A DNA stretch of 44,350 bases from a virus, in UHGV virus genome UHGV-0187309; one strand, given 5' to 3'. Every line of letters starts with the position of its first letter. The first letter of the stretch is position 1. The notes under the pieces were generated by a model. It ran no database searches and was not told the DNA's origin. It worked only from the letters and a program-made list of their open reading frames with translations. This document shows, piece by piece, positions 1 to 38,718 of this stretch. The translations under genes and the position numbers were made by a program.

Positions 1-344
1 TTACCTTTCTTAGAGATAACAGTGAGGACTCGACACTGCGATAATGATGCAGTTTTTAATCCTAAACCAAATCTTCCAAGGTCATTTGTAGCTCTTATAT
101 CTAATGGATTTCTGCTTCCATATTGCATAGCTTTATCAATTTCAGGTGCATCCATACCGTTACCATTATCTAGCACAGCTATGTAAGCATCACCGACAGG
201 GAAGAAAAATATATCTATATTCTCAGAGCAGGCAGCAATACTATTATCGATAATATCTGCTATTGCTGCATCTAACGTATAACCGATTGCCCTTGTAGAT
301 TCAATCAATGTGGGTGCATATGGCGGTAGTTCTATAGTGTGCAT
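1..344 (-). CDS. GHKL-type ATPase (histidine kinase-like ATPase fold), N-terminal part only; gene runs off the left edge of the window
   Basis: Reverse-strand translation from ATG at 342-344 reads MHTIELPPYAPTLIESTRAIGYTLDAAIADIIDNSIAA...VLDNGNGMD...GRFGLGLK, matching the N-box, G1 and G2 motifs of GHKL ATPases; GGAGGG RBS upstream on minus strand. Not in ORF track because truncated. Confidence 0.55.
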   Translation of the reverse strand, partial: MHTIELPPYAPTLIESTRAIGYTLDAAIADIIDNSIAACSENIDIFFFPVGDAYIAVLDNGNGMDAPEIDKAMQYGSRNPLDIRATNDLGRFGLGLKTASLSQCRVLTVISKKG

Positions 345-400: not shown

Positions 401-429
401 ACTATACCACAATCTGCTGATTTTTTCAA
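401..429 (-). promoter_or_regulatory. sigma70-like promoter for the GHKL ATPase gene (TTGAAA-17-TATAGT on minus strand)
   Basis: Reverse complement of 401-429 gives TTGAAA, 17 nt spacer, TATAGT, about 55 nt upstream of the ATG at 344. Confidence 0.4.
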
Positions 430-519: not shown

Positions 520-573
520 AAGATGCGAAAAACTCTGTGCAAGCATCGGACATCAGTGTCCATTTGCACAGAG
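520..573 (-). terminator. Rho-independent terminator downstream of the HExxH protein gene
   Basis: Perfect 10 bp inverted repeat CTCTGTGCAA / TTGCACAGAG (533-542, 564-573) with a nested GGACA/TGTCC palindrome, followed on the minus strand by a T-run. Confidence 0.55.
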
Positions 574-607
574 TCTTATTCTATGATTTACTTTCTCTAC
601 GGACTTA

Positions 608-1705
608 TCACTCCGAATACTCTCTCGCCATCTCTTTTATCTTCTCAACCATCATATCGCTGATGCAGCTTCCGATCTTCTCTAAAGTGTCCTCGTCCAT
701 CAACCAGAAACCTTTCTTATTAAGGTGTGCATCAAGTATCTTATACATTTTCCACATATGCGGCTGATAACACTCTGGTATATCGCTGATGCAGGTCGGC
801 TCTATGTTTTCATCGGGATAAACGCCGCCATTGATCTTCAGCTTACCCTCGTTAGCGGCATTTACAAATAATATCGTCAGATCGTCTGTGAGCAATTTTG
901 CGAAGTAGTGGGCAAGCGCATACTCATCAATGGTGTGCGAATAGTAGTAAAGCGTTGCTTCAAGAAAATCCTCTAACTGATTTACTATCCCGCCCCATAC
1001 ATCTGTTGTCCAGTCGAGCATTTCCGGATGATAGCTGTCACCGCCGGAGCGAATCGTATAGCTGACATGGTTTGCGATTACTTCTGCGATAAACTCCTGC
1101 CAGAACCAGTAGCCTTCCTGCTTTCGGCGTTCACTGCTGTATCTGCAGCCGTCGATTGCTGCATCATATAAAGGAGAATCATCTATCAGACCGGGTTCAT
1201 TATAACGGTGCAGATCATCTACCTCTGCATTGATAGTGTAGAAATGCCCAAGTTCATGCCAGAAGAAATGTTCAAAATAAACACGCAGCTCGAAGTCGTC
1301 ATGCACAGGCAAGTCTGCCACAAGCTCCCTGCGAATCAGAATCGCATTGCCTTTCTCACCGTGTATGTATTCCATGATGGAGTCAGGCGGTTCCTCTGTA
1401 TGAGGACAGCCGATGCTTTTGATGATCTTCTTTCTTGTCCGGGAATAACTGCTTGCAGTTGAAGTATACACCGGCGGAAACGGAATGCCGAGATCAGGCA
1501 TGATCTGCTCAAACTGCATCTTTGCCATTTCAGCCCAGTAAAGAATCGTTGCTTCGGGTATCGGGCGCGGCTTTGGCAGTTCAGCAGGATGTGCGGTATC
1601 TTCGCCGTTAGTACGCTCGGCAAATTCAAGCATACTCTTTACAAAATCAAGCGGCAAGCCTTTTTCTTCTGCCAGCTTCTGTGCTTCGACTTCAAGTTCA
1701 TTCAT
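608..1705 (-). CDS. Hypothetical protein with HExxH zinc-metallopeptidase-like motif (WHELGH)
   Basis: 365 aa ORF; HELGH motif in FEHFFWHELGHFY; no other recognisable family by eye. Confidence 0.75.
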   Translation of the reverse strand: MNELEVEAQKLAEEKGLPLDFVKSMLEFAERTNGEDTAHPAELPKPRPIPEATILYWAEMAKMQFEQIMPDLGIPFPPVYTSTASSYSRTRKKIIKSIGCPHTEEPPDSIMEYIHGEKGNAILIRRELVADLPVHDDFELRVYFEHFFWHELGHFYTINAEVDDLHRYNEPGLIDDSPLYDAAIDGCRYSSERRKQEGYWFWQEFIAEVIANHVSYTIRSGGDSYHPEMLDWTTDVWGGIVNQLEDFLEATLYYYSHTIDEYALAHYFAKLLTDDLTILFVNAANEGKLKINGGVYPDENIEPTCISDIPECYQPHMWKMYKILDAHLNKKGFWLMDEDTLEKIGSCISDMMVEKIKEMAREYSE

Positions 1706-1851
1706 GCGCTTTACTCCTTGTAAAATAGTACAATAATTTATTTTTTATTATAGCACAATTGCCGCCTGTTTTCAAGCCTTTAGAGAGCGTTTTCATATAA
1801 AAACTCAGGCTCTGTGAGAAGACACTATACCTCTCACAGAGCCTCTATTCA

Positions 1852-2487
1852 TTATACAGCCTTTTCCATCACTACCTCAGTCAAAGCCCTCTTGCATATC
1901 TCAGCAGGATTCCCGTTCGGCTTTATCCAGCTTTCAACGTCCTCTCTACTCAGTATCACCGGCATTCGGTCGTGGATGCTTCTCAGTTCCTCGGTTGCGT
2001 CCCGTGTGATTACCGCAAACACCGGGCAATTAACTCCGTTTCTCTCCTCGATCCTATACAACAGCCCAGCAAGCAGCGTAGATTCGGCTCCTTTCGGCTG
2101 TATCAGGTATTTATCGCCAACCTTCTTCTTTTTCCCGTCCGGACTCCTGAAATGCTCCCATTCAAAGTACCAACTGCTCGGAATTACGCATCTACTTCGG
2201 AACCATGAGTCCTTCCACATTTCCTTCTGGTCAGCCGTTTCGAGGCGGCAGTTCACGATTGGAGCATCGGTCGCGTCATGACTGAAACCCCAGAGCATCG
2301 GAAAAACTTCCATTCTTCCGTCCTTATTCGGTGCTAAAACCGCAGCAACATCAGTCGGACGCAGTTCACCGGACATAAACAGCGGTTTGCCGAGTTTTAC
2401 CATGATAGTATTCGCTAGCTCCAGTTTCTGTGCCCGTGTGATCAGCGGAGCGAACTGAGCAGGCTCTACATAGAAGCGTGTACACAT
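1852..2487 (-). CDS. SOS-response-associated peptidase (SRAP / YedK / HMCES-like, DUF159) abasic-site processing protein
   Basis: 211 aa; N-terminal MCTRF with Cys2 (catalytic Cys of SRAP family), overall SRAP-like length and motif pattern. Confidence 0.8.
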   Translation of the reverse strand: MCTRFYVEPAQFAPLITRAQKLELANTIMVKLGKPLFMSGELRPTDVAAVLAPNKDGRMEVFPMLWGFSHDATDAPIVNCRLETADQKEMWKDSWFRSRCVIPSSWYFEWEHFRSPDGKKKKVGDKYLIQPKGAESTLLAGLLYRIEERNGVNCPVFAVITRDATEELRSIHDRMPVILSREDVESWIKPNGNPAEICKRALTEVVMEKAV

Positions 2488-2501
2488 AAGACCACGACCT
2501 T

Positions 2502-3059
2502 TCAGCCTTCGATCATTCTCAGCTTATAGTGTTTTCGGCAGAGTGCTGTATAACTCTCATTACCGCCGAGCTGTACCTGTTCTCCCTCTGTGACCATTTC
2601 ACCGTTCAGGAGTCTTGCATTGAAGTGCGCTCTTTTGCCGCACCAGCAGATGGTCTTGATCTGCTCAATATCGTCTGCAAGCTCCATGAGCCGCTGTGCG
2701 CCGGGAAACAGATGACTCTGGAAGTCTGTCCGCAGGCCGTAGCAGATAACTGTGATGCCATGAAAATCCACAAGATCACTGAGCTTGTCTATCATTTCAG
2801 GTGACAGGAACTGCACCTCGTCAACGATGATACAGTCATAATGCTCACCATTATAGTCAGCAAGGAAGTTTTCAGCAAACTCGCAGGGTTCTTCAAGTCC
2901 GATGCGGGATTTTAGGTTCTTCGCACCGTCCCTGTCCTCGCATCTCGGCTTCAGCAGAAGCACTTTTTTGTCTCTCTCATAGTAGTTATATCGAACCATA
3001 AGCGCATTGGCGGTCTTGGAGCTGCCCATTGCGCCGTATCTGAATATCAGTTTTGCCAT
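2502..3059 (-). CDS. tdk: Thymidine kinase
   Basis: 185 aa; P-loop YGAMGSSKT, IIVDEVQF Walker B, C-terminal Cys cluster (CWCG...C) typical of type II thymidine kinases. Confidence 0.9.
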   Translation of the reverse strand: MAKLIFRYGAMGSSKTANALMVRYNYYERDKKVLLLKPRCEDRDGAKNLKSRIGLEEPCEFAENFLADYNGEHYDCIIVDEVQFLSPEMIDKLSDLVDFHGITVICYGLRTDFQSHLFPGAQRLMELADDIEQIKTICWCGKRAHFNARLLNGEMVTEGEQVQLGGNESYTALCRKHYKLRMIEG

Positions 3060-3064
3060 CTGCC

Positions 3065-3955
3065 TTACTCCTCATCGTCCTCGTGCATGACTTCATATCG
3101 CTTGATATCTCTCTTGCTTGCAATGGAAGCGGGTTCAAGGATACCGAGAACGCGCCCGATCAGAGTGACATTGTCATATTCTGTGAATGTCATGGTATCA
3201 TACTTATCATTAAACGATACCAGACCTTCTTCCTCATATATCTTTATGTATGTACTGTTTCCAACCATGAAAGCGCCGACCTCATCGTATTGCAGCTCCG
3301 GACAGCCGGGATACTTCTCCACAAGAACAAGGTCGCCGTCATGATACTCAGGCTCCATACTGTCGCCGTTGACAGGAAACACAAGGTCTGCCTGCCGTAT
3401 TGCTGTGTTCGTATTCGGATACAGATAGATCGGTGTTCCGTTGTCCTCAAACTCCGCCCCGCCGTCAAAGCCTGCTGCAAGCCCCTTGTCGCAGAGTGTC
3501 AGTTTGATGATCTCCGGGAAGCTGCCGACAGTCTCTGCCGCTTCAAGCGAGGATAGCAGACTGTCCATTGCAAGCTGGTGCGGATACGACAGTCCACGGT
3601 ATCTCTCTACCATAGACTTTTCCTTATCAGTATAGGTATCTTGCTTGTTTTCGATGCCATATAGTTCATACAGCGTGATACCAAGTGCGTCACATAGCTT
3701 AGGAACAACGCTGAAATCCGGGCGGGTTCTTCCGTTCTCCCAGTTACTGATAGCATTTGAGGTCACGCCGATTTTTTCTGCAATCACTTTCTGATCTAAT
3801 TTTAGACGCTCCCTGTAGTATTTGATGCGACCGCCAACCGCGTGAGCGTCCTTACGGTGGGCAGGATCAGAGATGTTACTCTTAATATCCTTGCCTCCCT
3901 GTGAGACTGAGATATTCGGTTTCTTACGCTGTTTCATTACAAAGCTCTCCTTCAA
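3065..3955 (-). CDS. Phage CI/LexA-like repressor (XRE-type HTH plus S24 peptidase domain)
   Basis: 296 aa; N-terminal HTH (QKVIAEKIGVTSNAISNWENGRTRP), C-terminal S24 signature GDSMEP and a downstream Lys; divergent from the next gene with intervening promoters. Confidence 0.9.
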   Translation of the reverse strand: MKESFVMKQRKKPNISVSQGGKDIKSNISDPAHRKDAHAVGGRIKYYRERLKLDQKVIAEKIGVTSNAISNWENGRTRPDFSVVPKLCDALGITLYELYGIENKQDTYTDKEKSMVERYRGLSYPHQLAMDSLLSSLEAAETVGSFPEIIKLTLCDKGLAAGFDGGAEFEDNGTPIYLYPNTNTAIRQADLVFPVNGDSMEPEYHDGDLVLVEKYPGCPELQYDEVGAFMVGNSTYIKIYEEEGLVSFNDKYDTMTFTEYDNVTLIGRVLGILEPASIASKRDIKRYEVMHEDDEE

Positions 3956-4097: not shown

Positions 4098-4126
4098 ATT
4101 ATAGCACACAATCGGTGTTTTGTCAA
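4098..4126 (-). promoter_or_regulatory. Repressor promoter (TTGACA-17-TATAAT on minus strand)
   Basis: Reverse complement of 4098-4126 reads TTGACA, 17 nt, TATAAT with TGn extended -10. Confidence 0.6.
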
Positions 4127-4131
4127 TACAA

Positions 4132-4147
4132 AATTGCACTTGCAATT
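4132..4147. promoter_or_regulatory. Palindromic candidate operator AATTGCA-CT-TGCAATT overlapping the -35 of the rightward promoter
   Basis: Perfect 7 bp inverted repeat with 2 bp centre, located between the two divergent promoters. Confidence 0.5.
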
Positions 4148-4168
4148 CGTTTGACGGTGTGATATAAT
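4140..4168 (+). promoter_or_regulatory. Rightward promoter (TTGCAA-17-TATAAT) for the ImmA-like gene
   Basis: TTGCAA at 4140-4145, 17 nt spacer, TATAAT at 4163-4168; about 200 nt leader before ATG at 4370. Confidence 0.55.
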
Positions 4169-4369: not shown

Positions 4370-6298
4370 ATGACTATATATCTTGATAGAGGACCGTTTC
4401 TCACCATTCCCGACAAGCTGCATTCGGGGCAGTACAGAGTGATCCGCAACCCCGACTGGCACGGAGTACTGCCGGAGATCGTGTCCTTCACCGATTTTCT
4501 CAAATGGAATTACACACTGGAGTATGGTCAGTATATCCGCAAATTGCACTACTACCACCAGCTTCCGCTGCCGTGGGTCGTTCCACAGGATGCCGAGATA
4601 GAAACTGTCATCATCGAGGAAGGCAGATATGACCGCATTGATCACAATTCCTTTGATATGTATGTGATATGCGATGTCGTGTTCGAGATGAACGGCTGCC
4701 GGCAGTGCCAGAAGTATATCGTACACGGCTTTTACTGCTCTTACGGCGGTTCAGACTTTCTGTGCGGTGCGGAGCTCTACAATGGTCAGTTTATCCGGCT
4801 GAACAATCCCTTAGATGAGTTTCTGGTTCCCATCCTTTCAAAGAAAGAATTTGCAAGCATTGCACAAGCAATCATCGACCACTACTATTCATACAAATCG
4901 AATTATCCCTGCCGCATCAATACTGCTTCAATTGCAAAGGCAATGGGTCACGATATAAAGTATGCCAGACTGTCAAAAAACGGAAATGTCAAGTCCAAGC
5001 TGATCCTGGACAAGCGGGATACGACCGTCTATGATAAGGAATACAAAGCTGTCAAAATGCGGATCGACAGTCCTACGATCCTTGTGGACGAGTCATTGGA
5101 GGAGGATGAAGCGCAGAACGCCATTATTCATGAGTGCGTTCACGCTTACCTTCACAACCTCTTCTATGAGCTGCAGAGCTACTATCGGAAAATGGTCGGC
5201 AGGAAGATGCCGGAGTTCAATGACTACTTCTATTCCAAGACGCAGCGTAGCTGCCTGAAATGGATGGAAACACAGGCAAATGCCATCCCACGCTTTATTC
5301 AGATGCCGGAGGAGCAGGCATCCGATGTCATCCTGAACTTCTTCGAGCGACTCCCCGGAGAGCCTGACTGGGACGATTACAGAGAACTGATCGACCTTGT
5401 GAAATGGAAGTTCGGAGTATCCCGCAATGCTGCGAAGAAGCGTATCATTGAGCTTGGCTGGCCGGAGGTGCGCGGTGTGTATGTCTACAACACCACAGGA
5501 TATGTTGAGGACTACGATGTAGAGCTAAGATTCCCGCAGGACTATACCTATACACTGTCATTCCGCCAAATCTCTGATGTGTTTGCATCCTGCGAGACCT
5601 TCGCAGAGCTTGTCCGTTCCAAGAAGTTCATCTATCTGGACGGTCATGTTGTGATCAACAGCGACAGGTATATCCGCAAGGAACACGGCTTAGCTATGGG
5701 CTTGACAGAGTATGCTAGACACCACATGGCAGAGTGCTGTCTGGATTTCAAGCGTATCTACGCAGAATTCGACTACAGCTATACCTATGGCGAGCTACAC
5801 AAGGATGACCTGACCGAGATCACGGCCGAAAACCGTTCGTTCAGCGATGAACAGCGAAAGAAGATCCGCATGGCAATGTATGAGATCACAGAAGAAAACT
5901 ATAAACTGACCGTTCCTTCAGATGTCAACGAATTCGGCAAGGCGGTGCGTTTCCATATGGAGAGATGCGGTCTCACCTCGGATCTGGTTGCAGACCGCAG
6001 CGGCATGGGTGTGAACACTGTCAATAAGATGCGCAGTGGCAAGAGAGTGAAGCTCGAAACAGTGCTAGCTTTTTGTGTCGCTTTGGAGCTTGAAGAGTCG
6101 TTCCGCATTGACCTTATGCAGAAAGCGAAGGTTGATTATGATATGAGCAATCCTGCCCATCGGCTCTATGTCACGATCTTTGAGCTGATGCCGAAGGCAA
6201 ATGTCTTTCAGATCAACGATCTGCTGAAGGCAGAAGGCTTTACGCCGTGGACGAGGGACTGCGAGGAAAAGAAGCGGTATGCTAAGAAAAGTATGTAA
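4370..6298 (+). CDS. Large ImmA/IrrE-like HExxH metallopeptidase-domain protein with C-terminal XRE-type HTH
   Basis: 642 aa; HExxH in IIHECVHAYLH; C-terminal HTH-like segment RSGMGVNTVNKMRSGKRVKLETVLAFCVALEL; AGGAGGG RBS. Confidence 0.8.
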   Translation: MTIYLDRGPFLTIPDKLHSGQYRVIRNPDWHGVLPEIVSFTDFLKWNYTLEYGQYIRKLHYYHQLPLPWVVPQDAEIETVIIEEGRYDRIDHNSFDMYVICDVVFEMNGCRQCQKYIVHGFYCSYGGSDFLCGAELYNGQFIRLNNPLDEFLVPILSKKEFASIAQAIIDHYYSYKSNYPCRINTASIAKAMGHDIKYARLSKNGNVKSKLILDKRDTTVYDKEYKAVKMRIDSPTILVDESLEEDEAQNAIIHECVHAYLHNLFYELQSYYRKMVGRKMPEFNDYFYSKTQRSCLKWMETQANAIPRFIQMPEEQASDVILNFFERLPGEPDWDDYRELIDLVKWKFGVSRNAAKKRIIELGWPEVRGVYVYNTTGYVEDYDVELRFPQDYTYTLSFRQISDVFASCETFAELVRSKKFIYLDGHVVINSDRYIRKEHGLAMGLTEYARHHMAECCLDFKRIYAEFDYSYTYGELHKDDLTEITAENRSFSDEQRKKIRMAMYEITEENYKLTVPSDVNEFGKAVRFHMERCGLTSDLVADRSGMGVNTVNKMRSGKRVKLETVLAFCVALELEESFRIDLMQKAKVDYDMSNPAHRLYVTIFELMPKANVFQINDLLKAEGFTPWTRDCEEKKRYAKKSM

Positions 6299-6312
6299 TA
6301 ACGGCATTTTCA

Positions 6313-6337
6313 GGAGGCTTTCGAGCCTCCTTTTTTT
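6313..6337 (+). terminator. Rho-independent terminator
   Basis: GGAGGCT-TTCG-AGCCTCC hairpin followed by TTTTTTT. Confidence 0.8.
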
Positions 6338-6946
6338 ATGCCCTGAAATATTTTCATGAAGCCCCCAGAAAAAATGGGGGCGATTTGCGTTTTTGAAATA
6401 GTTTAGAGACAGAATGTTCATAGAATATCCATTTAATTTAGATGATATGAACAAGTGAAGATGATATATCAAAGTTGAGATAAGCACAGTGCATAAAAAG
6501 CAGCCCCCATTTTTTATGTATGTAAAAGAAGATTCGGATATGTTATGATATAGACACGGTCAAGGACAGGCACCACCTTCCAAGACTGAAACACCACAAT
6601 GCCGGATGCATACGGCAGAGGATGTTCATATGATATCTGAACAGAATGCCATAGGTATACCCTGTGGTCGGAAGCCGATGTCATATGTCTACTCTGTGCT
6701 ATGCATCCGGCTATTTTTTTTGCCGCGGCATTCGGAGCATGGCAATTAGATCATTACATTTGTTAGTCAGGGCGCGCACTGGCGGACAGATGCTCATAGC
6801 GGAAATAACATCACGATTTGGAGTCTGTATAGACTGACAAGGTGTATTTCGTGTGGACATCGTCCCCTGCGTGCCTTTTTCTCTGGGACAGCAGTCGCGT
6901 TATGGGCATCTGCCGCTTGGTGTGTTCCTTGCAGAAAGGAACGATT

Positions 6947-7669
6947 ATGGAAAACGCAAATGTTCAGAATGCTGCCGCTATCACCGATAAGACCACCCTC
7001 GGCGAACTGCTTGCAATGCTTGACCTCGCTGATAAGGCAGGCAAGATGCCGACACCGAGAGAACTGTTTGAGACTGCCGGTTCGCCGATAGCCGATATGA
7101 ATGGCTGCACTCTCTTCAGCAACGGCTTCGCCATCTATCAGAATGTCACTGGGCGCACTGTTGTCTGGCTGCCGTACTGCAAGAGCTTCACCTATTACTT
7201 CGGCAAGCTCCGTGATTCCGAGAAAGACACGCTGACAGAGACCTATGAGCTGCCGGATGGATTTCTGGAAACACAGCCGTGGGTGATCGCAGTAACACTG
7301 ATCGGCGACCATCGTGTGGAGGCAAACAGCATGAACCGCACCGGCAGCCGCAAGGATACCACAGATTATGACAGCGCCGATAACGGCGATAAAGACGGTG
7401 ATGCAGAGGAGGCTTTGGCAGATCCGTATCGCAGGGCATTCAACTGGTATGACGGACGCATGGGCGAGAATCCGCAGGATGCCGTGGAGCGCAGAGAGAC
7501 ACGCGAGGAGATGCTTGCAGACATGACGGACAAGCAGCGTGAAGCCTTTATTATGTACTTCAGGGATGGTATGACGCAGGAAGAGATTGCTTCATATATA
7601 GGGGTAAGCCGTGATTCCATAAATGACAGGCTTGAAGGTGCTTTGAAAAAAGCAAAAAAATATTTTTAG
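6947..7669 (+). CDS. Sigma-70 region-4-like DNA-binding regulator
   Basis: C-terminal QREAFIMYFRDGMTQEEIASYIGVSRDSINDRLEGALKKAKK resembles sigma region 4 HTH; start at ATG 6947 (AAAGGAAC RBS) rather than the longer ORF start at 6842. Confidence 0.7.
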   Translation: MENANVQNAAAITDKTTLGELLAMLDLADKAGKMPTPRELFETAGSPIADMNGCTLFSNGFAIYQNVTGRTVVWLPYCKSFTYYFGKLRDSEKDTLTETYELPDGFLETQPWVIAVTLIGDHRVEANSMNRTGSRKDTTDYDSADNGDKDGDAEEALADPYRRAFNWYDGRMGENPQDAVERRETREEMLADMTDKQREAFIMYFRDGMTQEEIASYIGVSRDSINDRLEGALKKAKKYF

Positions 7670-7711
7670 GATACCCACAAAAAGACCTCTCCCACGACAG
7701 TATATGAGAGG
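7669..7711 (+). repeat. Copy 1 of a ~43 bp direct repeat (GGATACCCACAAAA-GCC-CTCTCCCACGACAGTATATGAG-GGG) containing a hairpin
   Basis: About 90 percent identical to 21496-21537; both copies lie just 3' of a gene end and are preceded by an A/T-rich run. Confidence 0.7.
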
Positions 7712-7806
7712 GCTTGAAAAGAAACCAAACCGCAAGCGGCTGCAAAGCCCTCGCAGCCGAACCATTATTACATCGGTCGAAAGACCTGAACAGAAAGGAA
7801 ATGCTT

Positions 7807-8169
7807 ATGCCTATGGAAAACAGAGTCCCGAAAAACCGCTACAACGGCGGTGCCGCAACCGATGCCGACAAGCAGGACAAGCCCGATGTGCTGAAGATGA
7901 TCGAAACGGCAATGGACAAGCGTGCGGCGGGCATCGCACAGACGGTCACGGATATGTTCCGTTTCATGTCGATGGCATCTGCCATGCTCCCGAATATGGA
8001 GATGGATGTCGGTGTGTTCCGTCTGAAGATCGACGATGACGGCATCTTTTTCGAGATCAACCATCCGTTCCGCAAGCGCAAGCAGCGTGATATCTCCAAT
8101 GACTGCTGTGCCGAGGAGCCGGACAACTATGATGATGACGAGGAGGGACTGATTTATGACGGAGACTGA
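7807..8169 (+). CDS. Hypothetical protein
   Basis: ORF 7714-8169; start placed at ATG 7807 after AAAGGA RBS; acidic C-terminus. Confidence 0.55.
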   Translation: MPMENRVPKNRYNGGAATDADKQDKPDVLKMIETAMDKRAAGIAQTVTDMFRFMSMASAMLPNMEMDVGVFRLKIDDDGIFFEINHPFRKRKQRDISNDCCAEEPDNYDDDEEGLIYDGD

Positions 8170-31991: not shown

Positions 31992-32035
31992 CTTGCATTC
32001 CGGGGCAAAAGACGGTAATATGTGACTACGAAAAC
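31992..32035 (+). promoter_or_regulatory. Cassette promoter P1 (CTTGCA-18-TAATAT) with conserved GTGAC downstream box
   Basis: First of nine near-identical promoter units; precedes ATG 32090. Confidence 0.6.
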
Positions 32036-32089
32036 GCCGCAGCCCAACGCACAAGGCTGAGGGGCGGCAGTAAAAACGGAGGTAATCAT

Positions 32090-32998
32090 ATGGAAATCAA
32101 GTTCAATATTGAAAAGAGCCAGCGCAAGGCACTGGCACAGAAAATCGGCGAGCTGACAGGAGCAGAGGTCAAGTACCTCGGTGTACCGGGCTGCAGATAC
32201 CAGATCGACTTCTTCACCCTGGACAAAAACGCAGTCCTCAGTTTCAGCGACCGCATCGACACAGATATCGTGGAGAAGGTACTGAATGGGCTTGCAGAGG
32301 CAGGATATGAAAGCAAAACAGTAGCACCGCCGGAAGAAACGGATGCTTCGGCTGAATCAGAGCCGGATATCCCTGACGAACCGAGCAGCGGATTTCCGCT
32401 GCTCGCAAGCATCAGCTTCCCGATTGCAGAGCACACGGTGCAGAGCCTTACAAACCTTATCTGCATGATCCACTCCCGCGGCGCACTTCTCAGCAAGGCG
32501 ACCGGCGGACAGTTCTTCGCAGACAAGAGCCTCGCCGATGCGATCCTCGATGACAAGACCTTCCGCAGCATCCACGAGCTTATCGCCTACATCAGAGTAT
32601 GGGAGGAAACGAATCCCGAACTGAAGGGCATCCGTTTCGCCGATGACAAGCTGATCTTTGACGGCTTCGGTGCAGCGCAGGATGCCGAAACGGTGCAGAC
32701 CTTCACCAAGCTCGCCACAGCCATGAACAGGATGGCGATCACGCAGAAACGTGTGCAGGCAAAGGATGTCGATGACAGCAACGAAAAGTACGCACTCCGC
32801 ATCTGGCTGATCCGCCTTGGGCTGAACGGCGCAGACTGCAAGGTTGACCGCAAGCGCCTCATGGCTCCGCTTTCCGGACACACCGCATTCCGCAACGATG
32901 CGGAGCGTGTGCGCTGGGAGGCAAAGCAAAAGGCAAAGCGTGATGCTGCCAGAACCGAACTGACCGAGGAGGATGAAAACGATGCAGTTTCCGAATGA
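32090..32998 (+). CDS. Hypothetical protein
   Basis: 302 aa; ACGGAGGTAA RBS; no recognisable motif. Confidence 0.75.
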   Translation: MEIKFNIEKSQRKALAQKIGELTGAEVKYLGVPGCRYQIDFFTLDKNAVLSFSDRIDTDIVEKVLNGLAEAGYESKTVAPPEETDASAESEPDIPDEPSSGFPLLASISFPIAEHTVQSLTNLICMIHSRGALLSKATGGQFFADKSLADAILDDKTFRSIHELIAYIRVWEETNPELKGIRFADDKLIFDGFGAAQDAETVQTFTKLATAMNRMAITQKRVQAKDVDDSNEKYALRIWLIRLGLNGADCKVDRKRLMAPLSGHTAFRNDAERVRWEAKQKAKRDAARTELTEEDENDAVSE

Positions 32999-33230
32999 AA
33001 GACAGCTCAGAGCCTTGCGGGAGCGTTATCCCGCAGGCACCCGCATCCGACTGAAGCATATGGATGACCCTTATGCACCCGTACCGCCCGGCACGGTCGG
33101 CGAGGTTCAGATGGTTGATGACGGCGGCAACATACACATGGTCTGGGAGAATGGCAGAACGCTCTCCCTTATAGACGGTGTCGATGATTTCCAGGTCATT
33201 TCTGACCGCAATGGGGGCTCCGGAAAATAA
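32982..33230 (+). CDS. DUF4314-like small protein
   Basis: PAGTRIRLKHMDDPYAPVPPGTVGEVQMVDDGGNIHMVWENGRTLSLIDGVDDF matches the DUF4314 pattern as I recall it; start at ATG 32982. Confidence 0.65.
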   Translation: MQFPNERQLRALRERYPAGTRIRLKHMDDPYAPVPPGTVGEVQMVDDGGNIHMVWENGRTLSLIDGVDDFQVISDRNGGSGK

Positions 33231-33341
33231 GAGATCCTATTCCATTGTATCCGAGTATACCATAGAATTTCAAGTATATCAAGTGTACACATACACCAGA
33301 TATGAGCAATGTATTTTCCTCGATATTCTGTGGTTTTAGCG

Positions 33342-33402
33342 GCTTGCTATATCCTCCGAAAGACGGTAATATGTGACACAACGGAAGGGCAAACGCCCAC
33401 CG
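33342..33402 (+). promoter_or_regulatory. Cassette promoter P2 (CTTGCT-19-TAATAT) plus conserved leader hairpin
   Basis: TAATATGTGACACAACGGAAGGGCAAACGCCCACCGAAAA leader. Confidence 0.6.
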
Positions 33403-33427
33403 AAAAACCGAATCGGAGGATACCAAA

Positions 33428-34372
33428 ATGACTGAGAAAACCGCACAGCAGATCAACAGAATGAAGGAGCAGACCATCGGGGTTGAGATCGAGATGAACA
33501 ACATCACCCGCAAGGCTGCCGCAAAGCTCGCCGCCGACTTCTTCGGCACGAACCGCTACGAGGACACGGCCTGCCGCAACGGCTACGAAACCTACAGTGC
33601 TTGGGACGCACAGGGACGCGAGTGGAAATTCCAGAAGGACGTCAGCATCGCAGGCCCCGACAGCGAAAAGTGCGAACTGGTCACACCGATCCTGCACTAC
33701 GCAGACATCGAAACCCTGCAGGAGCTTGTGAGAAGGCTCAGAAAGGCAGGAGCGCGCAGTGATTACACGCGGGGATGTGGAGTCCACTGCCACATTGGAG
33801 CCCAGGGACACACACCGCAGAGCCTCAGAAACCTCGCAAACCTTATGGCAAGCCACGAAACCCTGATCGCCGAGGCAATCAGAGTAGACCAGAGCAGAAT
33901 GCACCGCTACTGCAGAACAGTTGACCCGAGATTCCTTGAACAGCTCAACCGCAAAAAGCCCACCACGATGGCACAGCTTGCGGACATCTGGTACGGCGCA
34001 CAGGGCTGCGAATACGGCAGAACCCACCACTACAACGACAGCCGCTATCACATGCTCAACCTCCACGCTACCTTCACCAAAGGCACGGTCGAGTTCAGAC
34101 TTTTCCAGTTCGCACCGCCTTCCAACGGCAAGCAGAACGGGCTCCACGCAGGCAAGCTCAAGAGCTACATTCAGCTCTGCCTCGCAATGAGCCAGATGGC
34201 AAAGGACCTGCGGAGCGCCAGCCCCAAGGAACAGCAGAAGGAAAACAAAAAGTTCGCCATGCGGACTTGGCTGATGAGAATGGGATTCATCGGGGATGAA
34301 TTCGCAACGGCGAGAGAGGTCCTCACTGAGAACCTTACGGGCGACAACAGCTTCCGCTTCGGCAGATCTTAA
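33428..34372 (+). CDS. Putative amidoligase (glutamine-synthetase-like fold, Amidoligase_2-type)
   Basis: 314 aa; GVEIEMNN (ExE motif) and GCGVHCHIGAQGH (HxH motif) as in GS-like amidoligases of phages and conjugative elements; family call from memory. Confidence 0.7.
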   Translation: MTEKTAQQINRMKEQTIGVEIEMNNITRKAAAKLAADFFGTNRYEDTACRNGYETYSAWDAQGREWKFQKDVSIAGPDSEKCELVTPILHYADIETLQELVRRLRKAGARSDYTRGCGVHCHIGAQGHTPQSLRNLANLMASHETLIAEAIRVDQSRMHRYCRTVDPRFLEQLNRKKPTTMAQLADIWYGAQGCEYGRTHHYNDSRYHMLNLHATFTKGTVEFRLFQFAPPSNGKQNGLHAGKLKSYIQLCLAMSQMAKDLRSASPKEQQKENKKFAMRTWLMRMGFIGDEFATAREVLTENLTGDNSFRFGRS

Positions 34373-34636
34373 AGGCCTGCCCTTCGGGGCGGAAGAACAA
34401 GCGGAACGGCACGGCGGCGCACACAGCCGCCACGGTCTCGGCTCTCGCCTCGGTCGGTGCTTCTGCTTCGCAGAGGTTGCCACTGGCAACCCGCACCCCC
34501 GTGTGTGGCGGAAAGGGTATCCTCCGAATCGGTATCCCATCTCAGTCAACCGCGCCACACAGCGCAAATGTAGGCAAGGCATAAAATGCACAACATACGG
34601 CACAGAATCGCCCTCGATGATCTGTTCATTTACCCG

Positions 34637-34666
34637 CTTGATAATGCCGCCGAAATGAGTTAACAT
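34637..34666 (+). promoter_or_regulatory. Cassette promoter P3 (CTTGAT-18-TAACAT)
   Basis: Same -35/18/-10 geometry as other cassette promoters; precedes ATG 34706. Confidence 0.5.
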
Positions 34667-34705
34667 AGCACTACCGCAAGGAAAAAACGCAAAGGAGAAC
34701 ATAGC

Positions 34706-35173
34706 ATGAACAAGAAAAAATACTACATAGCCTACGGCAGCAACCTCAACATCCGCCAGATGCGATTCCGCTGCTCAGGCGCAAAGCCCATCGGCATTTC
34801 CGCGATTCCTGACTACGAACTGCTCTTCAAGGGCAGCAAGACGGGAGCGTACCTCACCATCGAGCCGAAGGACGGCGGGCTTGTTCCGGTCGCCGTGTGG
34901 GAAGTGACAGCCGACGATGAGAAGCACCTCGACATCTACGAGGGCTACCCGAACTTCTACTACAAGAAGGAAGTCCGCCTGCCAATCAGGCTGGCAAACG
35001 GCAAGACCAAAAAGGTCACGGCATTTGTCTACATCATGCACGAGGAGCGTGAGATTGCGATCCCGTCAATGACCTACATCCGCACCTGCGAGGAAGGCTA
35101 CCGCAACTTCGGCTTCGACACCAAGTTCCTTGATGCCGCCTACGAGATCAGCGCAAAGGAGGTACAGCGATGA
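34706..35173 (+). CDS. Gamma-glutamyl cyclotransferase-like (GGCT/AIG2-like) protein
   Basis: N-terminal YYIAYGSNLN signature and YEGYP Glu-containing motif. Confidence 0.8.
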   Translation: MNKKKYYIAYGSNLNIRQMRFRCSGAKPIGISAIPDYELLFKGSKTGAYLTIEPKDGGLVPVAVWEVTADDEKHLDIYEGYPNFYYKKEVRLPIRLANGKTKKVTAFVYIMHEEREIAIPSMTYIRTCEEGYRNFGFDTKFLDAAYEISAKEVQR

Positions 35174-35370
35174 AAGACCGCAACAAAGAGCCGCACATCT
35201 GCCCGAAATGCGGGCAGGCGTACACCGCCCGACCAGCTCTTTCCCGCGTGGATAACAGCCCAATCTGCCCCGACTGCGGAACGCGTGAAGCGCTTGAAAG
35301 CATCGGCGTCGGACGCGAGGAACAGGACAAGATTCTCGGCATCATCCACGAGAAGTACGAAGGCGAATAA
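35170..35370 (+). CDS. Small zinc-ribbon protein
   Basis: 66 aa; CPKCG...CPDCG Cys4; start overlaps the GGCT-like stop (ATGA). Confidence 0.6.
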   Translation: MKDRNKEPHICPKCGQAYTARPALSRVDNSPICPDCGTREALESIGVGREEQDKILGIIHEKYEGE

Positions 35371-35378
35371 GTCGGCAC

Positions 35379-35402
35379 AAAGGGGCGTTACAGCCCCTTT
35401 CC
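35379..35402 (+). terminator. Hairpin AAGGGGC-GTTACA-GCCCCTT after the zinc-ribbon gene (candidate terminator)
   Basis: 7 bp GC-rich stem with weak T-tract. Confidence 0.4.
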
Positions 35403-35526
35403 GCATTCTCAGGGATAACTTATCCCCCACTTTCCGGGCGTGACACGGCGCGTTCTGGCGCAAACTATGTACCTGTTCAGCTTGCTGAAAACGGCGATTC
35501 TTCTACGATTTATTTTGCACATAGGC

Positions 35527-35590
35527 GTGGACTTTTCAGGCAAAAGGCGGTAGTATGTGACACAACGGAAGGGCAGACAGCCCACCGGAA
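35527..35590 (+). promoter_or_regulatory. Cassette promoter P4 (GTGGAC-18-TAGTAT) plus conserved leader hairpin
   Basis: TAGTATGTGACACAACGGAAGGGCAGACAGCCCACCGG. Confidence 0.55.
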
Positions 35591-35613
35591 TTCATAACAT
35601 GGAGGATACGAAC

Positions 35614-36084
35614 ATGAACGACAGCTACTTTGAGGAGATGACCTTCCAGTGCGCCGCCTATGAACGCGCCAAAAAGGAGCGCGCCGAGCGCAAGGCTCAG
35701 ATTGCCGAAGCCCACGGCTACGACAGCCCGGAGGTGGACGCTTGGTACGCTGAGGAGAAGGCGGCAGGTCCTTACCCCTACAGCGGCAATGAGATGAAAG
35801 CCTACTGGGTGTACAAGATGCGCCGCGAGAACGACGGTGACGAGTTCGAGATGAGCGATTACTGCTGGGACAAGGAATTCCACGATTTCATCGAAACGCT
35901 CCGCAAGCTAGGCATCACCGAGTTCACGATCACCAATCAGAGCACGGCGCTGATGGAGAACATCTACGGATTTATTGCAGAAGGCTGCACGATGGTCGGA
36001 ACGCACACCATCACCAAGAAGAGCCTGCGCTGGGGCGAGGAAGAATACGAAACGGCACAGGGCATCCTTTTCAAGGTGAACTGA
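35614..36084 (+). CDS. Hypothetical protein
   Basis: 156 aa from ATG 35614 (GGAGGATACGAAC RBS). Confidence 0.7.
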   Translation: MNDSYFEEMTFQCAAYERAKKERAERKAQIAEAHGYDSPEVDAWYAEEKAAGPYPYSGNEMKAYWVYKMRRENDGDEFEMSDYCWDKEFHDFIETLRKLGITEFTITNQSTALMENIYGFIAEGCTMVGTHTITKKSLRWGEEEYETAQGILFKVN

Positions 36085-36092
36085 TATCGACA

Positions 36093-36130
36093 GGAGCAGG
36101 GCTTCGGCTCTGCTCCCCTCCCCCTTTTCC
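36093..36130 (+). terminator. Rho-independent terminator-like hairpin (10 bp stem, TTCG loop)
   Basis: GGAGCAGGGC-TTCG-GCTCTGCTCC followed by CCTCCCCCTTTTCC; near-identical hairpin also after 38529. Confidence 0.55.
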
Positions 36131-36200
36131 TCATGTGTAAATCCTACAATACGAAAGGCTGAGATCGGCGATTCTTCTACGTTTTATTTTGCACATAGGC

Positions 36201-36270
36201 GTGGACTTATCAGCAGGATCATGGTAATATGTGACACAACGGAAGGGCAGAACGCCTACCGAAAAACGAA
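36201..36270 (+). promoter_or_regulatory. Cassette promoter P5 (GTGGAC-18-TAATAT) plus leader hairpin
   Basis: TAATATGTGACACAACGGAAGGGCAGAACGCCTACCGAAAA. Confidence 0.55.
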
Positions 36271-36285
36271 ACGGAGGATAACACC

Positions 36286-36606
36286 ATGAACCCCTACACA
36301 CTGAGAAAGAGCCTGAACCTGATTGATGCCAACACGGCGATCACCCGCGAGGACTTCGAGAGCCTCTTCTGCAAGACTGCAGAGCGTGTCACCTTTACCT
36401 TCAACGGTTGGGACGGCAAGAGCTATGATGGCGAGAGGCGCAGCGGTTACGTTTACCGCACCATCATCGAGGGCTACGAGAATGTGAGATTCGTTAAGGT
36501 CGGCAAGGGACTGCATTACATCGATGAGGACAGCAGCATTACCGAGAAGGCTACGGGCATCGCCCACAAGGAAGCAGAGTGGCTGGTCGATGTGAAGAGA
36601 GCATAA
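36286..36606 (+). CDS. Hypothetical protein
   Basis: 106 aa; ACGGAGGATAA RBS. Confidence 0.7.
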   Translation: MNPYTLRKSLNLIDANTAITREDFESLFCKTAERVTFTFNGWDGKSYDGERRSGYVYRTIIEGYENVRFVKVGKGLHYIDEDSSITEKATGIAHKEAEWLVDVKRA

Positions 36607-36672
36607 GCAAAACAGCGGAGCCCTTCCTGCGGGGAGGGCTTACCGCAGAAAAAAACATGGAGGTTTACGAAC

Positions 36673-37056
36673 ATGAGTACGAATTCAAGAGTCGGAATTC
36701 TGCATCAGGACGGCGTCACGGAGACAATCTACTGCCATTGGGACGGCTACCCCGAACACCAGATGCCCATCCTCACCGAGCATTATAACACCGCCGAGAA
36801 GGTCAAGGCACTGCTTGCCCTTGGAGACATCAGCATCCTCGGCGAGCGCCTTGCTCCCGATGCGGATGAGCCGCACAGCTTTGAAAAGCCTGCCGATGGT
36901 GTGACGGTTGCTTACCACCGCGACCGCAAAGAGCCGATGCAGCCTGCGGTCACCCACAAGAGCGTTGTTTCCCTGATGAGCGATGACTGGGGCATTCCGT
37001 ATTACTACCTTTTCGATGAGGAAAAAGGAGCATGGCTTCCGCCGACCGAGGACTGA
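36673..37056 (+). CDS. Hypothetical protein
   Basis: 127 aa; GGAGG RBS; co-transcribed position after 36286 gene. Confidence 0.7.
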   Translation: MSTNSRVGILHQDGVTETIYCHWDGYPEHQMPILTEHYNTAEKVKALLALGDISILGERLAPDADEPHSFEKPADGVTVAYHRDRKEPMQPAVTHKSVVSLMSDDWGIPYYYLFDEEKGAWLPPTED

Positions 37057-37235
37057 TAGGTTCAGCCCTGCGGGGCTGACTTGCCCCACGTTGTCCTTTG
37101 TGCGGTTTTCCTGCGATAAGCTTGCCCCTGCGGAAAGCCGCCTCACACGGCGCGTTTGTGTGCCTCCTGTGGGCTTGGTGCTATGTATACAACAAATGGC
37201 GCAGATACGCCGATTTTGTTCTGAACATTTAGCCG

Positions 37236-37300
37236 CTTGCTATTCCGGAAAGATCATGGTAATATGCTACACAACGGAAGGGCAAACGCCCACCGAATAC
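37236..37300 (+). promoter_or_regulatory. Cassette promoter P6 (CTTGCT-18-TAATAT) plus leader hairpin
   Basis: TAATATGCTACACAACGGAAGGGCAAACGCCCACCGAATAC. Confidence 0.55.
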
Positions 37301-37321
37301 AAAACACGGAGGTAAACCACC

Positions 37322-37687
37322 ATGACAAAGAAGGAAATGAAAGCCGCAGTTGCCAAGCTGAAGATGCTGCAGAACGGCAAAGCCGCCCTTGAGGGAATGA
37401 CCGAAGCGGACTGCCTTGAGCTTTTCGGGATCAGCAGAGCGCAGGCACTTGCAAACACAAACGCCGCCCTTGCCAAAACCGAGCAGGAGATTTTCAGAGC
37501 CGAGCATCCGCTGACAGGCATCGACAAACAGCTCTTCGAGATCGCAGCAAAGCACCTGATCACGGTGCAGGAGCGCGGAGACCTTGAAGCCCGCCACTGC
37601 GACAGCGAGGACTTCATCGAGGGTTCGGTCTGGGGGCTGGAAGCCGCCCTCAAGGATGCCTACGAGGCAGGACGCAAGAGCAAGTAA
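37322..37687 (+). CDS. Hypothetical protein
   Basis: 121 aa; ACGGAGGTAAACC RBS. Confidence 0.7.
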   Translation: MTKKEMKAAVAKLKMLQNGKAALEGMTEADCLELFGISRAQALANTNAALAKTEQEIFRAEHPLTGIDKQLFEIAAKHLITVQERGDLEARHCDSEDFIEGSVWGLEAALKDAYEAGRKSK

Positions 37688-37749
37688 CCAAACGGAACAG
37701 CGCAGCCCTTCCGCAGGGAGGGGCTGCCAATCCCGAAGGAGGAAAGAAC

Positions 37750-37929
37750 ATGGATACATACGCACAGCTTGAAATGCTGACCGCAGTCATCGCAAACCTG
37801 TCGGCCACGGGAACATGGACGGAGCGAGAAGTGATGGAAACGCTGCTGGATGTCTTTGAACCGAAGGAGCTTGAACAGCTCGGCTACGGCGACTGCGTGA
37901 ACGCATACTTGGAAGAGTACGGCGGATAG
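37750..37929 (+). CDS. Small hypothetical protein (59 aa), absent from the supplied ORF track
   Basis: ATG 37750 preceded by GAAGGAGGAAAG RBS; translation MDTYAQLEMLTAVIANLSATGTWTEREVMETLLDVFEPKELEQLGYGDCVNAYLEEYGG; TAG at 37927-37929. Confidence 0.55.
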   Translation: MDTYAQLEMLTAVIANLSATGTWTEREVMETLLDVFEPKELEQLGYGDCVNAYLEEYGG

Positions 37930-38098
37930 CGACGACACACGCACCACGTTGCCTCGTGTGGGGCGGTGCCGGGGAGATGCGTACAGCTTGCCCCTGCGAA
38001 AAGCCGCCTTACACGGCGCGTTCTGGCGCGTCCTATACGATGTACAATTCCGCCCGACTTCCCGCCTCATGTTTGTCACATTTATTTTGCAGACAGAC

Positions 38099-38135: not shown

Positions 38136-38175
38136 CCGCAAGAGAAGCGGAATCAATCAAAAGGAGCGAATCTAC

Positions 38176-38695: not shown

Positions 38696-38718
38696 ACGAA
38701 AATGCGGAGGTACACACC

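Follow-up and report, generated by a model that had tools for sequence, protein, structure and literature searches.

The locus examined here raises the question of whether a putative metalloprotease, encoded next to an SRAP (YedK/HMCES-type abasic-site crosslinking) protein and a thymidine kinase (TK), resolves the crosslinks that SRAP forms with DNA. This was the role suggested in the preliminary description, and such an enzyme would be the first protease, bacterial or phage, dedicated to SRAP–DNA crosslinks; the evidence presented below runs against it. The window, by which we mean the whole 44,350-nucleotide stretch of viral DNA analysed (UHGV-0187309), corresponds to the lysogeny side of a temperate gut/rumen Clostridia phage (Oscillospiraceae/Ruminococcus-type). 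The features considered are collected in Table 1.

Table 1. Coordinates and assignments of the features discussed, in order along the window
Feature	Position (nt)	Strand	Remarks
mzaB, 5' part (HATPase_c_3)	1..344	-	first gene of Mza defence system; runs past window edge
Promoter-like site of mzaB	429..401	-	
Hairpin then UUUUU, terminator-like	529..577	-	inverted repeat I9; after protease stop, 3' cassette boundary
365-aa protein	608..1705	-	soluble and acidic; zincin (gluzincin-type) metallopeptidase, family undescribed
Glu204 of 365-aa protein	1096..1094	-	putative third zinc ligand
HELGH of 365-aa protein	1258..1244	-	codons 150–154
Predicted sigma-70-type promoter of protease gene	1747..1775	-	TTGAAA, 17 nt, TATAAT; TG extended -10
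Predicted intrinsic terminator	1807..1844	-	15-bp stem then UUUUU; after SRAP, 5' boundary of protease cassette
SRAP, 211 aa	1852..2487	-	Pfam SRAP 6e-34
Thymidine kinase, 185 aa	2502..3059	-	Pfam TK 1e-40, phrog_592 2e-65
CI/LexA-like repressor	3065..3937	-	XRE helix-turn-helix + S24 peptidase; first gene of operon
Predicted promoter of repressor operon	4126..4098	-	12/12 consensus
Palindrome ATTGCA-CT-TGCAAT	4133–4146		operator candidate, between the two divergent promoters
Predicted promoter of 642-aa gene	4140..4168	+	in divergent region 4098..4168
642-aa protein	4370..6298	+	M78/IrrE-like HExxH (HECVH), C-terminal helix-turn-helix; divergent from repressor

The proposal that the 365-aa protein is an HExxH metalloprotease was borne out, and because it was found to have a zincin fold whose active site is conserved, the objection that would follow from lack of a metalloprotease fold does not apply. 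The WHELGH motif occupies residues 149–154, of which W149, H150, E151, G153 and H154 are invariant across 45 homologues, down to 36% identity; by this sequence evidence the HExxH is not fortuitous. Zinc ligands were assigned from residue co-variation instead of ligand geometry in the model. Glu204 is kept in all 43 HExxH-intact family members (Asp replacing Glu in one), and it is lost jointly with the His pair, as all 10 of the distant members without the histidines are also without Glu204. The protein was modelled with AF2 (pLDDT 91.8), and it fits the arrangement of gluzincins (clan MA), in which the HExxH helix packs on a beta-sheet and a Glu ligand lies on a later helix. With a pI of 4.7 and a net charge of about -33 (family pI range 4.5–5.2), the protein is predicted from sequence and model to be a cytoplasmic acidic zincin metallopeptidase with His150, His154 and Glu204 as ligands.

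Searches with the 365-aa protein gave no family match in Pfam (to E = 0.1), NCBIfam, PHROGs or PADLOC, and a PDB profile search returned spurious matches to designed repeat proteins only. A single sub-threshold PhageMetallopep match was seen when ten distant family members were scanned against Pfam, and scattered zincin matches, all sub-threshold, when all 54 aligned members were. The closest comparisons were with PDB 3CMN (a putative hydrolase of Chloroflexus aurantiacus) and with the gluzincin cores of M1, M13, thermolysin and DPP III, at ~10% sequence identity and with roughly half of the 365-aa protein aligned. Because of this low identity and partial alignment, and because Foldseek against PDB and BFVD gave no significant whole-chain match, the family is best regarded as a separate gluzincin branch with its own C-terminal domain; it is small, undescribed and limited to mobile elements. 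The SprT/Wss1-like family that had been put forward as a candidate was not recovered, since sequence searches revealed no SprT-like/WLM domain, nor did one rank first among structural matches. The DNA–protein crosslink proteases SprT, Spartan and Wss1 have the HExxH zincin core in common with the 365-aa protein, but the latter is acidic, its third ligand is Glu rather than His, and no counterpart of their DNA-binding module (zinc-binding subdomain, basic region) was detected in it by Pfam scan.

Upstream of the protease gene, the other two assignments of the preliminary description were confirmed. SRAP begins MCTRF and so carries Cys2, and alignment with Escherichia coli YedK keeps the catalytic residues N79, E109 and H172, which match the IN(A)R, FEW and IHDR motifs of YedK. 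The gene directly upstream is indeed tdk, its product scoring 139.9 bits with Pfam TK (cut-off 20.6) and 207 bits with the NCBIfam equivalog NF003300 (cut-off 195). TK starts 5 nt past the end of a repressor gene, and SRAP, the final gene of this repressor operon, starts 14 nt past the end of TK. The repressor matches Pfam HTH_3 (2e-15), Peptidase_S24 (3e-13) and phrog_4, transcriptional repressor (1e-37); its translation shows a GDSM serine motif, a Lys in YIKIY and an AAG candidate cleavage site, and its start is probably ATG 3937 (the 290-aa gene call in the source contig), although the open reading frame reaches TTG 3955. On sequence predictions, a perfect-consensus promoter drives this tightly packed repressor–TK–SRAP operon, with a strong terminator at its end. 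The divergent 642-aa gene (Pfam Peptidase_M78 1.4e-4, HTH_31 1.5e-4, phrog_4031 1e-76), in whose product H254, E255, H258 and E300 are invariant across 22 relatives, is a conserved neighbour of the lysogeny operon within this phage group.

In 17 related loci SRAP holds the same place after the repressor, TK being present or not, and in 12 of these SRAP-anchored loci a TK–SRAP pair lies in a predicted operon with a CI/LexA-like repressor. What is conserved is the succession of CI/LexA-like repressor, TK and SRAP, with variable cargo after it. In the window SRAP is tied to an S24 LexA/CI-like repressor, and it is from this association that the SRAP family takes its name. SOS-linked operons with SRAP were described by Aravind et al. 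(2013), and SRAP in temperate phages was known earlier (PMC3765255). Compared with YedK/HMCES and those operons, SRAP of the window differs in being paired with TK in a Clostridial phage repressor operon, a pairing for which no earlier description was found in the SRAP literature.

SRAP, the protease gene and TK had been placed in one operon. All three are co-directional on the minus strand, as stated, but the single operon did not stand, because a terminator and an extended -10 promoter separate SRAP from the 365-aa gene. By consensus and energy predictions, on which all of these elements are based, the hairpin after SRAP folds as RNA with -29.8 kcal/mol (z -7.2), the promoter matches consensus at 11 of 12 positions, and the hairpin after the protease stop folds with -25.3 kcal/mol (z -4.9). 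An AAGGAG ribosome-binding site and then the protease ATG at 1705 follow the promoter. Some read-through of the upstream terminator from the repressor operon is possible. The promoter is kept upstream of the protease gene in five further loci (L051, L017, L054, L031 and L058) with four different upstream neighbours. Both hairpins are built on the stem core CTCTGTG..CACAGAG, these being its sole two matches in the window (0.01 expected), and such hairpins were restricted to the surroundings of the protease gene (4 of 340 loci, 4.0 Mb). In L031 the hairpin again lies upstream of the protease gene, there behind another gene; it was not found after SRAP in loci L112–L128. The 365-aa gene forms a unit of its own, made up of hairpin, promoter, ribosome-binding site, open reading frame and second hairpin, that recurs behind varied neighbours.

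Conservation of the SRAP–protease neighbourhood had been suggested as a check on a partnership, and no recurrent linkage emerged: of the 28 family loci left after dereplication, just 1 has SRAP within 5 kb of the protease gene, and the protease is absent from all 17 SRAP-anchored relatives, where its slot is filled by restriction-modification systems. When the SRAP HMM was run over the family loci, matches were confined to the window's own contig (L029) and one 95%-identical relative (L051), and in L051 SRAP is interrupted by an IS element while the protease gene is intact. Crosslinks of YedK/HMCES are, moreover, resolved mostly by self-reversal (PMC9436759, PMC10505908, PMC10842721) and thus need no protease of their own. 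With these counts, and with a terminator and promoter between the genes, the idea of a crosslink-resolving partner is not supported: the 365-aa protease most likely does not serve SRAP specifically, and nothing ties it to removal of SRAP–DNA crosslinks. That the gene is an autonomous zincin cassette rather than a partner of SRAP is, in our judgement, highly probable.

What the protease does instead was considered against several readings, one of which makes it a DNA-damage-response enzyme that works with SOS-like phage cargo, processing or degrading either a component of the Y-family polymerase mutasome (p96, or the YolD-like protein as UmuD analogue) or, as the preliminary description suggested, SRAP–DNA crosslinks, in the manner of SPRTN/Wss1. 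SRAP adjoins the protease gene in the window, and a Y-family polymerase (IMS) was found within 5 kb in 12 of the 28 dereplicated family loci, with YolD-like genes in 11 and p96 in 10. Several lineages even carry the protease within the polymerase operon, in the order p96, protease, IMS, YolD-like with gaps of 17 and 50 nt, and one has an S24 repressor, RecA and, further on, the protease, with IMS divergent. SRAP and zincin peptidases (DUF955) have been tied to SOS/mutagenic polymerase operons (PMC3765255), a partnership of SRAP-like proteins with PolY has been suggested (PMC12926913), and faint SprT-like Pfam matches occur in 3 of 54 family members (best E = 0.029). A base rate for the polymerase was taken from 29 control loci anchored on a PDDEXK replication gene unrelated to the protease, which was used instead of the 642-aa neighbour because the latter yielded 6 loci from a single-protein scan with a divergent alignment. 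IMS lies upstream in 10 of the 29 control loci (34%) as against 43% of protease loci, which is no enrichment, and the protease was present in just 2 of 126 newly fetched IMS-anchored loci. The polymerase linkage was consequently rejected as a specific sign of a DNA-damage role, the Y-family cassette being very common in this phage group. The SRAP linkage was seen in a single lineage, across a terminator and promoter; the family is acidic throughout, has a Glu third ligand rather than His and shows no detected DNA-binding domain; and self-reversal leaves no need for a dedicated protease. A DNA-damage-response function is judged unlikely on this evidence, and the stricter version, in which the family is dedicated to DNA-damage tolerance as a functional counterpart to SPRTN/Wss1 or to UmuD processing, acting on SRAP–DNA adducts or p96/YolD-like subunits, very unlikely indeed. 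The 365-aa scaffold would in that version be a zincin unrelated to SPRTN/Wss1. Pfam scans of p96, p160/p186, p166, p246 and p639 gave weak matches only, to YolD (E = 0.05) and HipA_C (E = 0.015).

Two further readings start from the genes around the protease. As a lysogeny-switch protease it would be an anti-repressor of the ImmA/IrrE kind, cleaving its own or a competitor's repressor and so controlling induction. ImmA/IrrE proteins (Peptidase_M78, formerly DUF955) are likewise zincins beside repressors in mobile elements, and DUF955-type zincins were already noted as SOS-associated (PMC3765255). Many loci have a repressor gene near the protease (S24 in 8 of 28, XRE in 6 of 28); in L017 and L054–57 the protease gene and that of a LexA-like repressor are divergently oriented, and one family member has a faint Peptidase_M78 match (E = 0.007). 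However, HHalign against 11 ImmA-like M78 proteins of related phages gave 6.6% probability with only the HExxH helix aligned, and the 365-aa protein is about twice the length of ImmA/IrrE, with a helical C-terminal half and no Pfam M78 match. It also occurs together with a genuine ImmR/ImmA pair or with S24 repressors that cleave themselves, and in neither case is an extra protease needed; in ICE-like and other settings it is found with no repressor close by. The idea that the protease promoter shares an operator with the switch region was considered and rejected, as no copy of ATTGCA-NN-TGCAAT was found near that promoter; repeats in the promoter/switch region are at chance level. A switch function is judged very improbable. 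The other reading keeps the protease in genetic conflict, either as an anti-defence protease or as half of a two-gene module with the kinase-like p246, of which the window copy would be a partner-less remnant. An order of WYL regulator, protease and p246, with a protease–p246 gap of 10 nt, recurs in L002, L032–35, L058, L062 and L101, in relatives whose identity with the protease of the window ranges from ~29% to ~80%; L051 too has a p246-like gene, one subclade of the family is without catalytic residues, and the weak HipA_C match noted above is that of p246. The module might be imagined as toxin–antitoxin-like or as sensor–effector. On the other hand, p246 is missing from most family loci, the window included, and the window protease retains all catalytic residues and its own predicted promoter, while anti-defence functions are mostly encoded by early lytic genes, not by lysogeny-side morons. 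Both forms of this reading together are considered improbable.

The explanation we favour is that the protease is a defence or conflict protein expressed in the lysogen. Its cassette has the features of a moron, namely a predicted promoter of its own with hairpins, unrelated flanks and patchy presence, the gene being missing from the 29 replication-gene-anchored relatives as it is from those anchored on SRAP; the 365-aa gene may thus be cargo expressed in the lysogen from its own promoter. The cassette would occupy a cargo hotspot downstream of the repressor operon, which in relatives appears to hold restriction-modification systems and in the window the protease cassette and then Mza, the Mza defence system following immediately downstream in the source contig. 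Other family members have as neighbours Lamassu LmuB (9e-175) and LmuA, PDC-S06 (1e-175) and PD-T7-4, as well as AbiEi/AbiEii, AbiLi, AriA-like, MkoA-like and several PDC candidates, and in one lineage a WYL regulator lies directly upstream of the protease gene. Since prophage cargo regions commonly carry defence systems in any case, this adjacency is descriptive only; more generally, adjacency in a prophage cargo hotspot is a weak sign of functional coupling unless compared with a base rate.

A precedent for such a role is Lit of the e14 prophage of E. coli (peptidase U49), a zinc protease of abortive infection with EF-Tu as its substrate. By analogy, the 365-aa protein may act in conflict between mobile elements by cleaving a protein of the phage or the host, so that superinfection is excluded or aborted. 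Both would be stand-alone cytoplasmic HExxH zinc proteases of a prophage, expressed in the lysogen amid accessory or defence cargo, although no sequence relation was found with Pfam (E ≤ 0.1) or PADLOC, both libraries being assumed to hold a Lit model. A conflict role is judged the most likely of the readings because of the position of the gene, its autonomy, its patchy distribution and its repeated adjacency to known defence systems; as an assignment by analogy it is nonetheless tentative, and we would put it no higher than a reasonable possibility. The statement taken as a whole, i.e. an autonomous cassette beside the repressor operon, not partnered with SRAP and with an inferred defence or conflict function, comes close to an even chance without quite reaching it. 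Given its defined active site, self-contained cassette and defence-island habitat, the 365-aa family is a reasonable single-gene candidate for phage-defence screens. The locus is also an example of how the lysogeny operon is built in widespread gut/rumen Clostridial phages, with the repressor followed by DNA-damage cargo and then a defence-cargo hotspot; the DNA-damage cargo after the repressor in these phages is either TK and SRAP, as in the window, or p96, PolY and YolD-like.

Four open reading frames run in the same direction on the minus strand within positions 608–3955. Their delimitation, Pfam and NCBIfam matches, and an alignment with E. coli YedK bore out the coordinates and gene identifications of the preliminary description. 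The SRAP protein keeps Asn-79, Glu-109, and His-172, which align with the corresponding catalytic residues of YedK, and the product of the first gene is, as judged from its domains, a CI/LexA-like self-cleaving repressor. The 365-amino acid protein had no match in Pfam, NCBIfam, PHROGs, or PADLOC. On the 3′ side of the divergent 642-amino acid gene lie a sigma-like gene, a DNA polymerase A replication module, NrdD, methyltransferases, and a terminase, which together with the repressor side indicate a temperate phage. Two amidoligase-like genes (phrog_2443; 32090–32998 and 33428–34372) are also present, and AT skew of up to 0.19–0.27 with GC of ~0.55 was seen across 32000–40000.

Features of the protease cassette and the adjoining repressor operon
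Feature	Position	Strand	Basis
mzaB, part (window starts inside gene)	1–344	-	PADLOC; complete Mza system in source contig L029, 11362–20239
3′ hairpin and U-run past protease stop codon, predicted	577..529	-	-25.3 kcal/mol, z -4.9
365-aa protein, WHELGH at residues 149–154	1705..608	-	ORF and motif
Protease promoter, predicted, TTGAAA-17-TATAAT, TG extended -10	1775..1747	-	AAGGAG ribosome-binding site next
5′ hairpin, 15-bp stem then UUUUU, predicted terminator	1844..1807	-	-29.8 kcal/mol, z -7.2
SRAP	2487..1852	-	Pfam 6e-34; N terminus MCTRF
Thymidine kinase (TK)	3059..2502	-	Pfam 1e-40; NCBIfam equivalog above cut-off
XRE helix-turn-helix and Peptidase_S24 repressor, 290–296 aa	3955/3937..3065	-	Pfam 2e-15 and 3e-13; phrog_4 "transcriptional repressor" 1e-37
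Repressor-operon promoter, predicted	4126..4098	-	12/12 consensus
642-aa M78-like and HTH protein, divergent from repressor	4370–6298	+	phrog_4031

A search of 5.8 billion proteins returned 150 homologues of the 365-amino acid protein, none with a Pfam domain or informative name; their main sources were metagenomes of rumen and gut and MAGs of Ruminococcus, Oscillospiraceae, and Lachnospiraceae. The family is small: when 1.84 billion cluster representatives were searched with a profile, only 256 relatives reached E ≤ 1e-3. Across 45 homologues (down to 36% identity), Trp-149, His-150, Glu-151, Gly-153, His-154, Gln-196, Gly-198, Tyr-199, and Trp-202 are invariant, and Glu-204 nearly so. AlphaFold2 gave a high-confidence model (pLDDT 91.8, pTM 0.84), which places a small β-sheet (79–82, 111–115, and 120–125) before the HELGH helix (137–159) and the Glu-204 helix (191–220), with a helical C-terminal half. 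In a wider alignment, Glu-204 is kept in all 43 HExxH-bearing members (Asp in one) and absent from all 10 that lack the HExxH histidines; this co-variation identifies Glu-204 as the predicted third zinc ligand and the protein as a putative gluzincin-type enzyme. Those ten distant members (P0168, P0185, P0192, P0194, P0195, P0198, P0201, P0202, P0213, and P0219) have lost both zinc-binding His residues and Glu-204 together, still carry the other parts of the fold signature (GYW, AILI), and look like pseudo-proteases.

The model and the co-variation uphold the metalloprotease fold expected in the preliminary description; the protein represents an undescribed family with that fold. With Foldseek, neither the PDB nor predicted viral structures yielded a significant match over the whole chain, and profile–profile comparison with ImmA-like M78 proteases from the same phages gave a probability of 6.6%. 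Scanning 54 members yielded only scattered, sub-threshold zincin matches (SprT-like in three; M78, PhageMetallopep, DUF5700, and MPTase-PolyVal in one each), and no test run on the protease placed it in SprT/Wss1, M78, or Lit. The family itself is new and belongs to a known kind, zincins of clan MA that mobile elements carry as cargo. The family is acidic throughout (pI 4.5–5.2; 66 Asp + Glu versus 33 Lys + Arg in the window protein), and neither a signal peptide, a membrane segment, nor a DNA-binding domain was indicated by Pfam scan and N-terminal sequence. One degenerate locus (L091, 8037–11977) carries a zincin 5′-truncated to 248 amino acids, a 121-amino acid ORF with a ClpX-type zinc-finger motif (judged by eye from sequence), and a Y-family polymerase broken into 154- and 325-amino acid ORFs, with a YolD-like gene next.

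The preliminary description had suggested that this protease might resolve SRAP–DNA crosslinks. In all, 111 loci encoding family members were fetched from genomes, viral contigs, and metagenomes and dereplicated at 90% identity, and linkage was counted in the 28 clusters flanked on each side by 3 kb or more. SRAP or TK lay within 5 kb of the protease in one cluster, the window's own lineage, and a SRAP HMM run on every ORF of the family loci matched only in L029 and in L051, a relative at 95% identity whose SRAP gene is interrupted by an IS3-type insertion and whose protease gene is intact. In the reverse direction, all 17 loci anchored on SRAP genes 74–84% identical showed a divergent 642-amino acid-like gene and an XRE-S24 repressor followed by SRAP, with TK in between in 12; the protease was found in none, the genes after SRAP being restriction-modification (Dcm with HinfI-like, or MmeI/Eco57I-like) or other cargo. 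With 1/28 and 0/17, linkage is not recurrent, and the crosslink-resolving partnership is refuted on its own terms. YedK and HMCES crosslinks moreover self-reverse (PMC9436759, PMC10505908, PMC10842721), so a dedicated protease is not needed. The L051 locus (4994–7849) has its IS3-type transposase ORFs at 6464–7643 on the minus strand and an additional 290-amino acid kinase-like gene between TK and SRAP.

Gaps of 5 and 14 nt separate the repressor, TK, and SRAP genes, and 146 nt separate SRAP from the protease; from the predicted promoter and terminators, SRAP and the protease are probably separate transcription units. The stem core CTCTGTG..CACAGAG is common to both hairpins, which are its sole two sites in the window (0.01 expected). 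Among 340 fetched loci (4.0 Mb) it occurs around the protease gene only, in L029, L030, L051, and L031, the last with a gene other than SRAP upstream. The protease promoter is kept behind four neighbours: SRAP, IS-disrupted SRAP, a divergent LexA-like repressor, and a 166-amino acid ORF. With its own predicted promoter and hairpins behind different neighbours, the gene behaves as an autonomous cassette, a putative moron inserted 3′ of the repressor operon, and it is very probably this rather than a SRAP partner. The stem-core hairpins (1810–1841 and 533–573) flank the cassette exactly; besides their predicted terminator role, they may also mark recombination boundaries. A perfect 6-2-6 palindrome (ATTGCA-CT-TGCAAT, 4133–4146) is placed exactly between the two divergent promoters, of the repressor and of the 642-amino acid gene, and is a likely operator candidate; no copy was found at the protease promoter. 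One-mismatch copies occur at 4859 and 4931, both within the 642-amino acid gene.

A DNA-damage role was also considered by way of a cassette of p96 (96 amino acids), the Y-family polymerase IMS, and a YolD-like gene (E = 0.05), which adjoins many family members. IMS lies within 5 kb of the protease in 12/28 clusters, the protease gene sometimes sits within the polymerase operon (gaps of 17 and 50 nt), and one lineage has the order S24–RecA–...–protease. As SRAP and Y-family polymerase modules are known associates (PMC3765255, PMC12926913), this proximity seemed to favor such a role. However, among 29 control loci that had an unrelated replication gene (PDDEXK/DUF2800) as anchor and 7 kb or more upstream, IMS was present in 10 (34%), versus 43% of protease loci; of the 126 viral loci newly fetched with these polymerases as anchor, only 2 carried the protease. 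Co-occurrence not above base rate, with so little reverse linkage, was rejected as specific evidence for this role. In this phage group the repressor-proximal slot is simply occupied most often by the polymerase cassette, and two loci with the order S24, TK, p96, IMS, YolD-like fit a slot model of repressor, optional TK, SRAP or polymerase cassette, and variable cargo. In most related phages the cassette comes after the repressor (L039 7694–11015; L031 4765–7151; L129–L254), with a YolD-like gene in 119/126 IMS-anchored loci (L129–L254); p96 received no family assignment.

It is the S24–TK–SRAP operon whose DNA-damage logic is coherent: in it, a RecA-sensitive repressor would be co-expressed with an abasic-site shield (SRAP) and thymidine salvage (TK). 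SRAP behind an S24 repressor, and in temperate phages, has already been described (PMC3765255); the TK–SRAP pairing is a recurrent detail of the present phage group. The 642-amino acid protein, at the Cro/antirepressor position of the switch, has an M78-like HECVH site and a C-terminal helix-turn-helix (phrog_4031), with His-254, Glu-255, His-258, and Glu-300 invariant in 22 relatives (~20% identity).

The analysis shows a catalytically intact, soluble gluzincin with its own predicted promoter, carried by mobile elements; what remains from the refuted SRAP idea is an orphan candidate defence protease. In the source contig it lies next to an Mza defence system (PADLOC MzaB 2e-92, MzaC 9e-121, MzaD 3e-20, MzaE 9e-74) joined by a C5 DNA methylase gene. 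Other members adjoin Lamassu (LmuB 9e-175, LmuA), PDC-S06 (1e-175), or a PD-T7-4-like DUF4145 protein, and more neighbours match AbiEi/AbiEii, AbiLi, AriA-like, MkoA-like, and several PDC candidates. For further members the surroundings are ICE-like and include serine recombinases, topoisomerase, YodL/LPD18, and a faint match to ArdA. No constant partner was found across the family loci, and the defence-gene association is descriptive. By analogy with Lit, the zinc protease of prophage e14, we tentatively suggest a conflict protease that would be made in the lysogen and cleave a protein target in mobile-element conflict, the outcome being superinfection exclusion or abortive infection.

Positions 429..401, by mzaB, hold a promoter-like site. 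In one lineage a WYL regulator is directly upstream of the protease and a kinase-like 246-amino acid gene (p246; weak HipA_C match, E = 0.015) follows 10 nt downstream; zincin and p246 may form a two-gene module. The WYL–zincin–p246 order recurs at L002 (6997–9824), L032–L035, L058, L062, and L101, with zincins ~29% to ~80% identical to the window protein.
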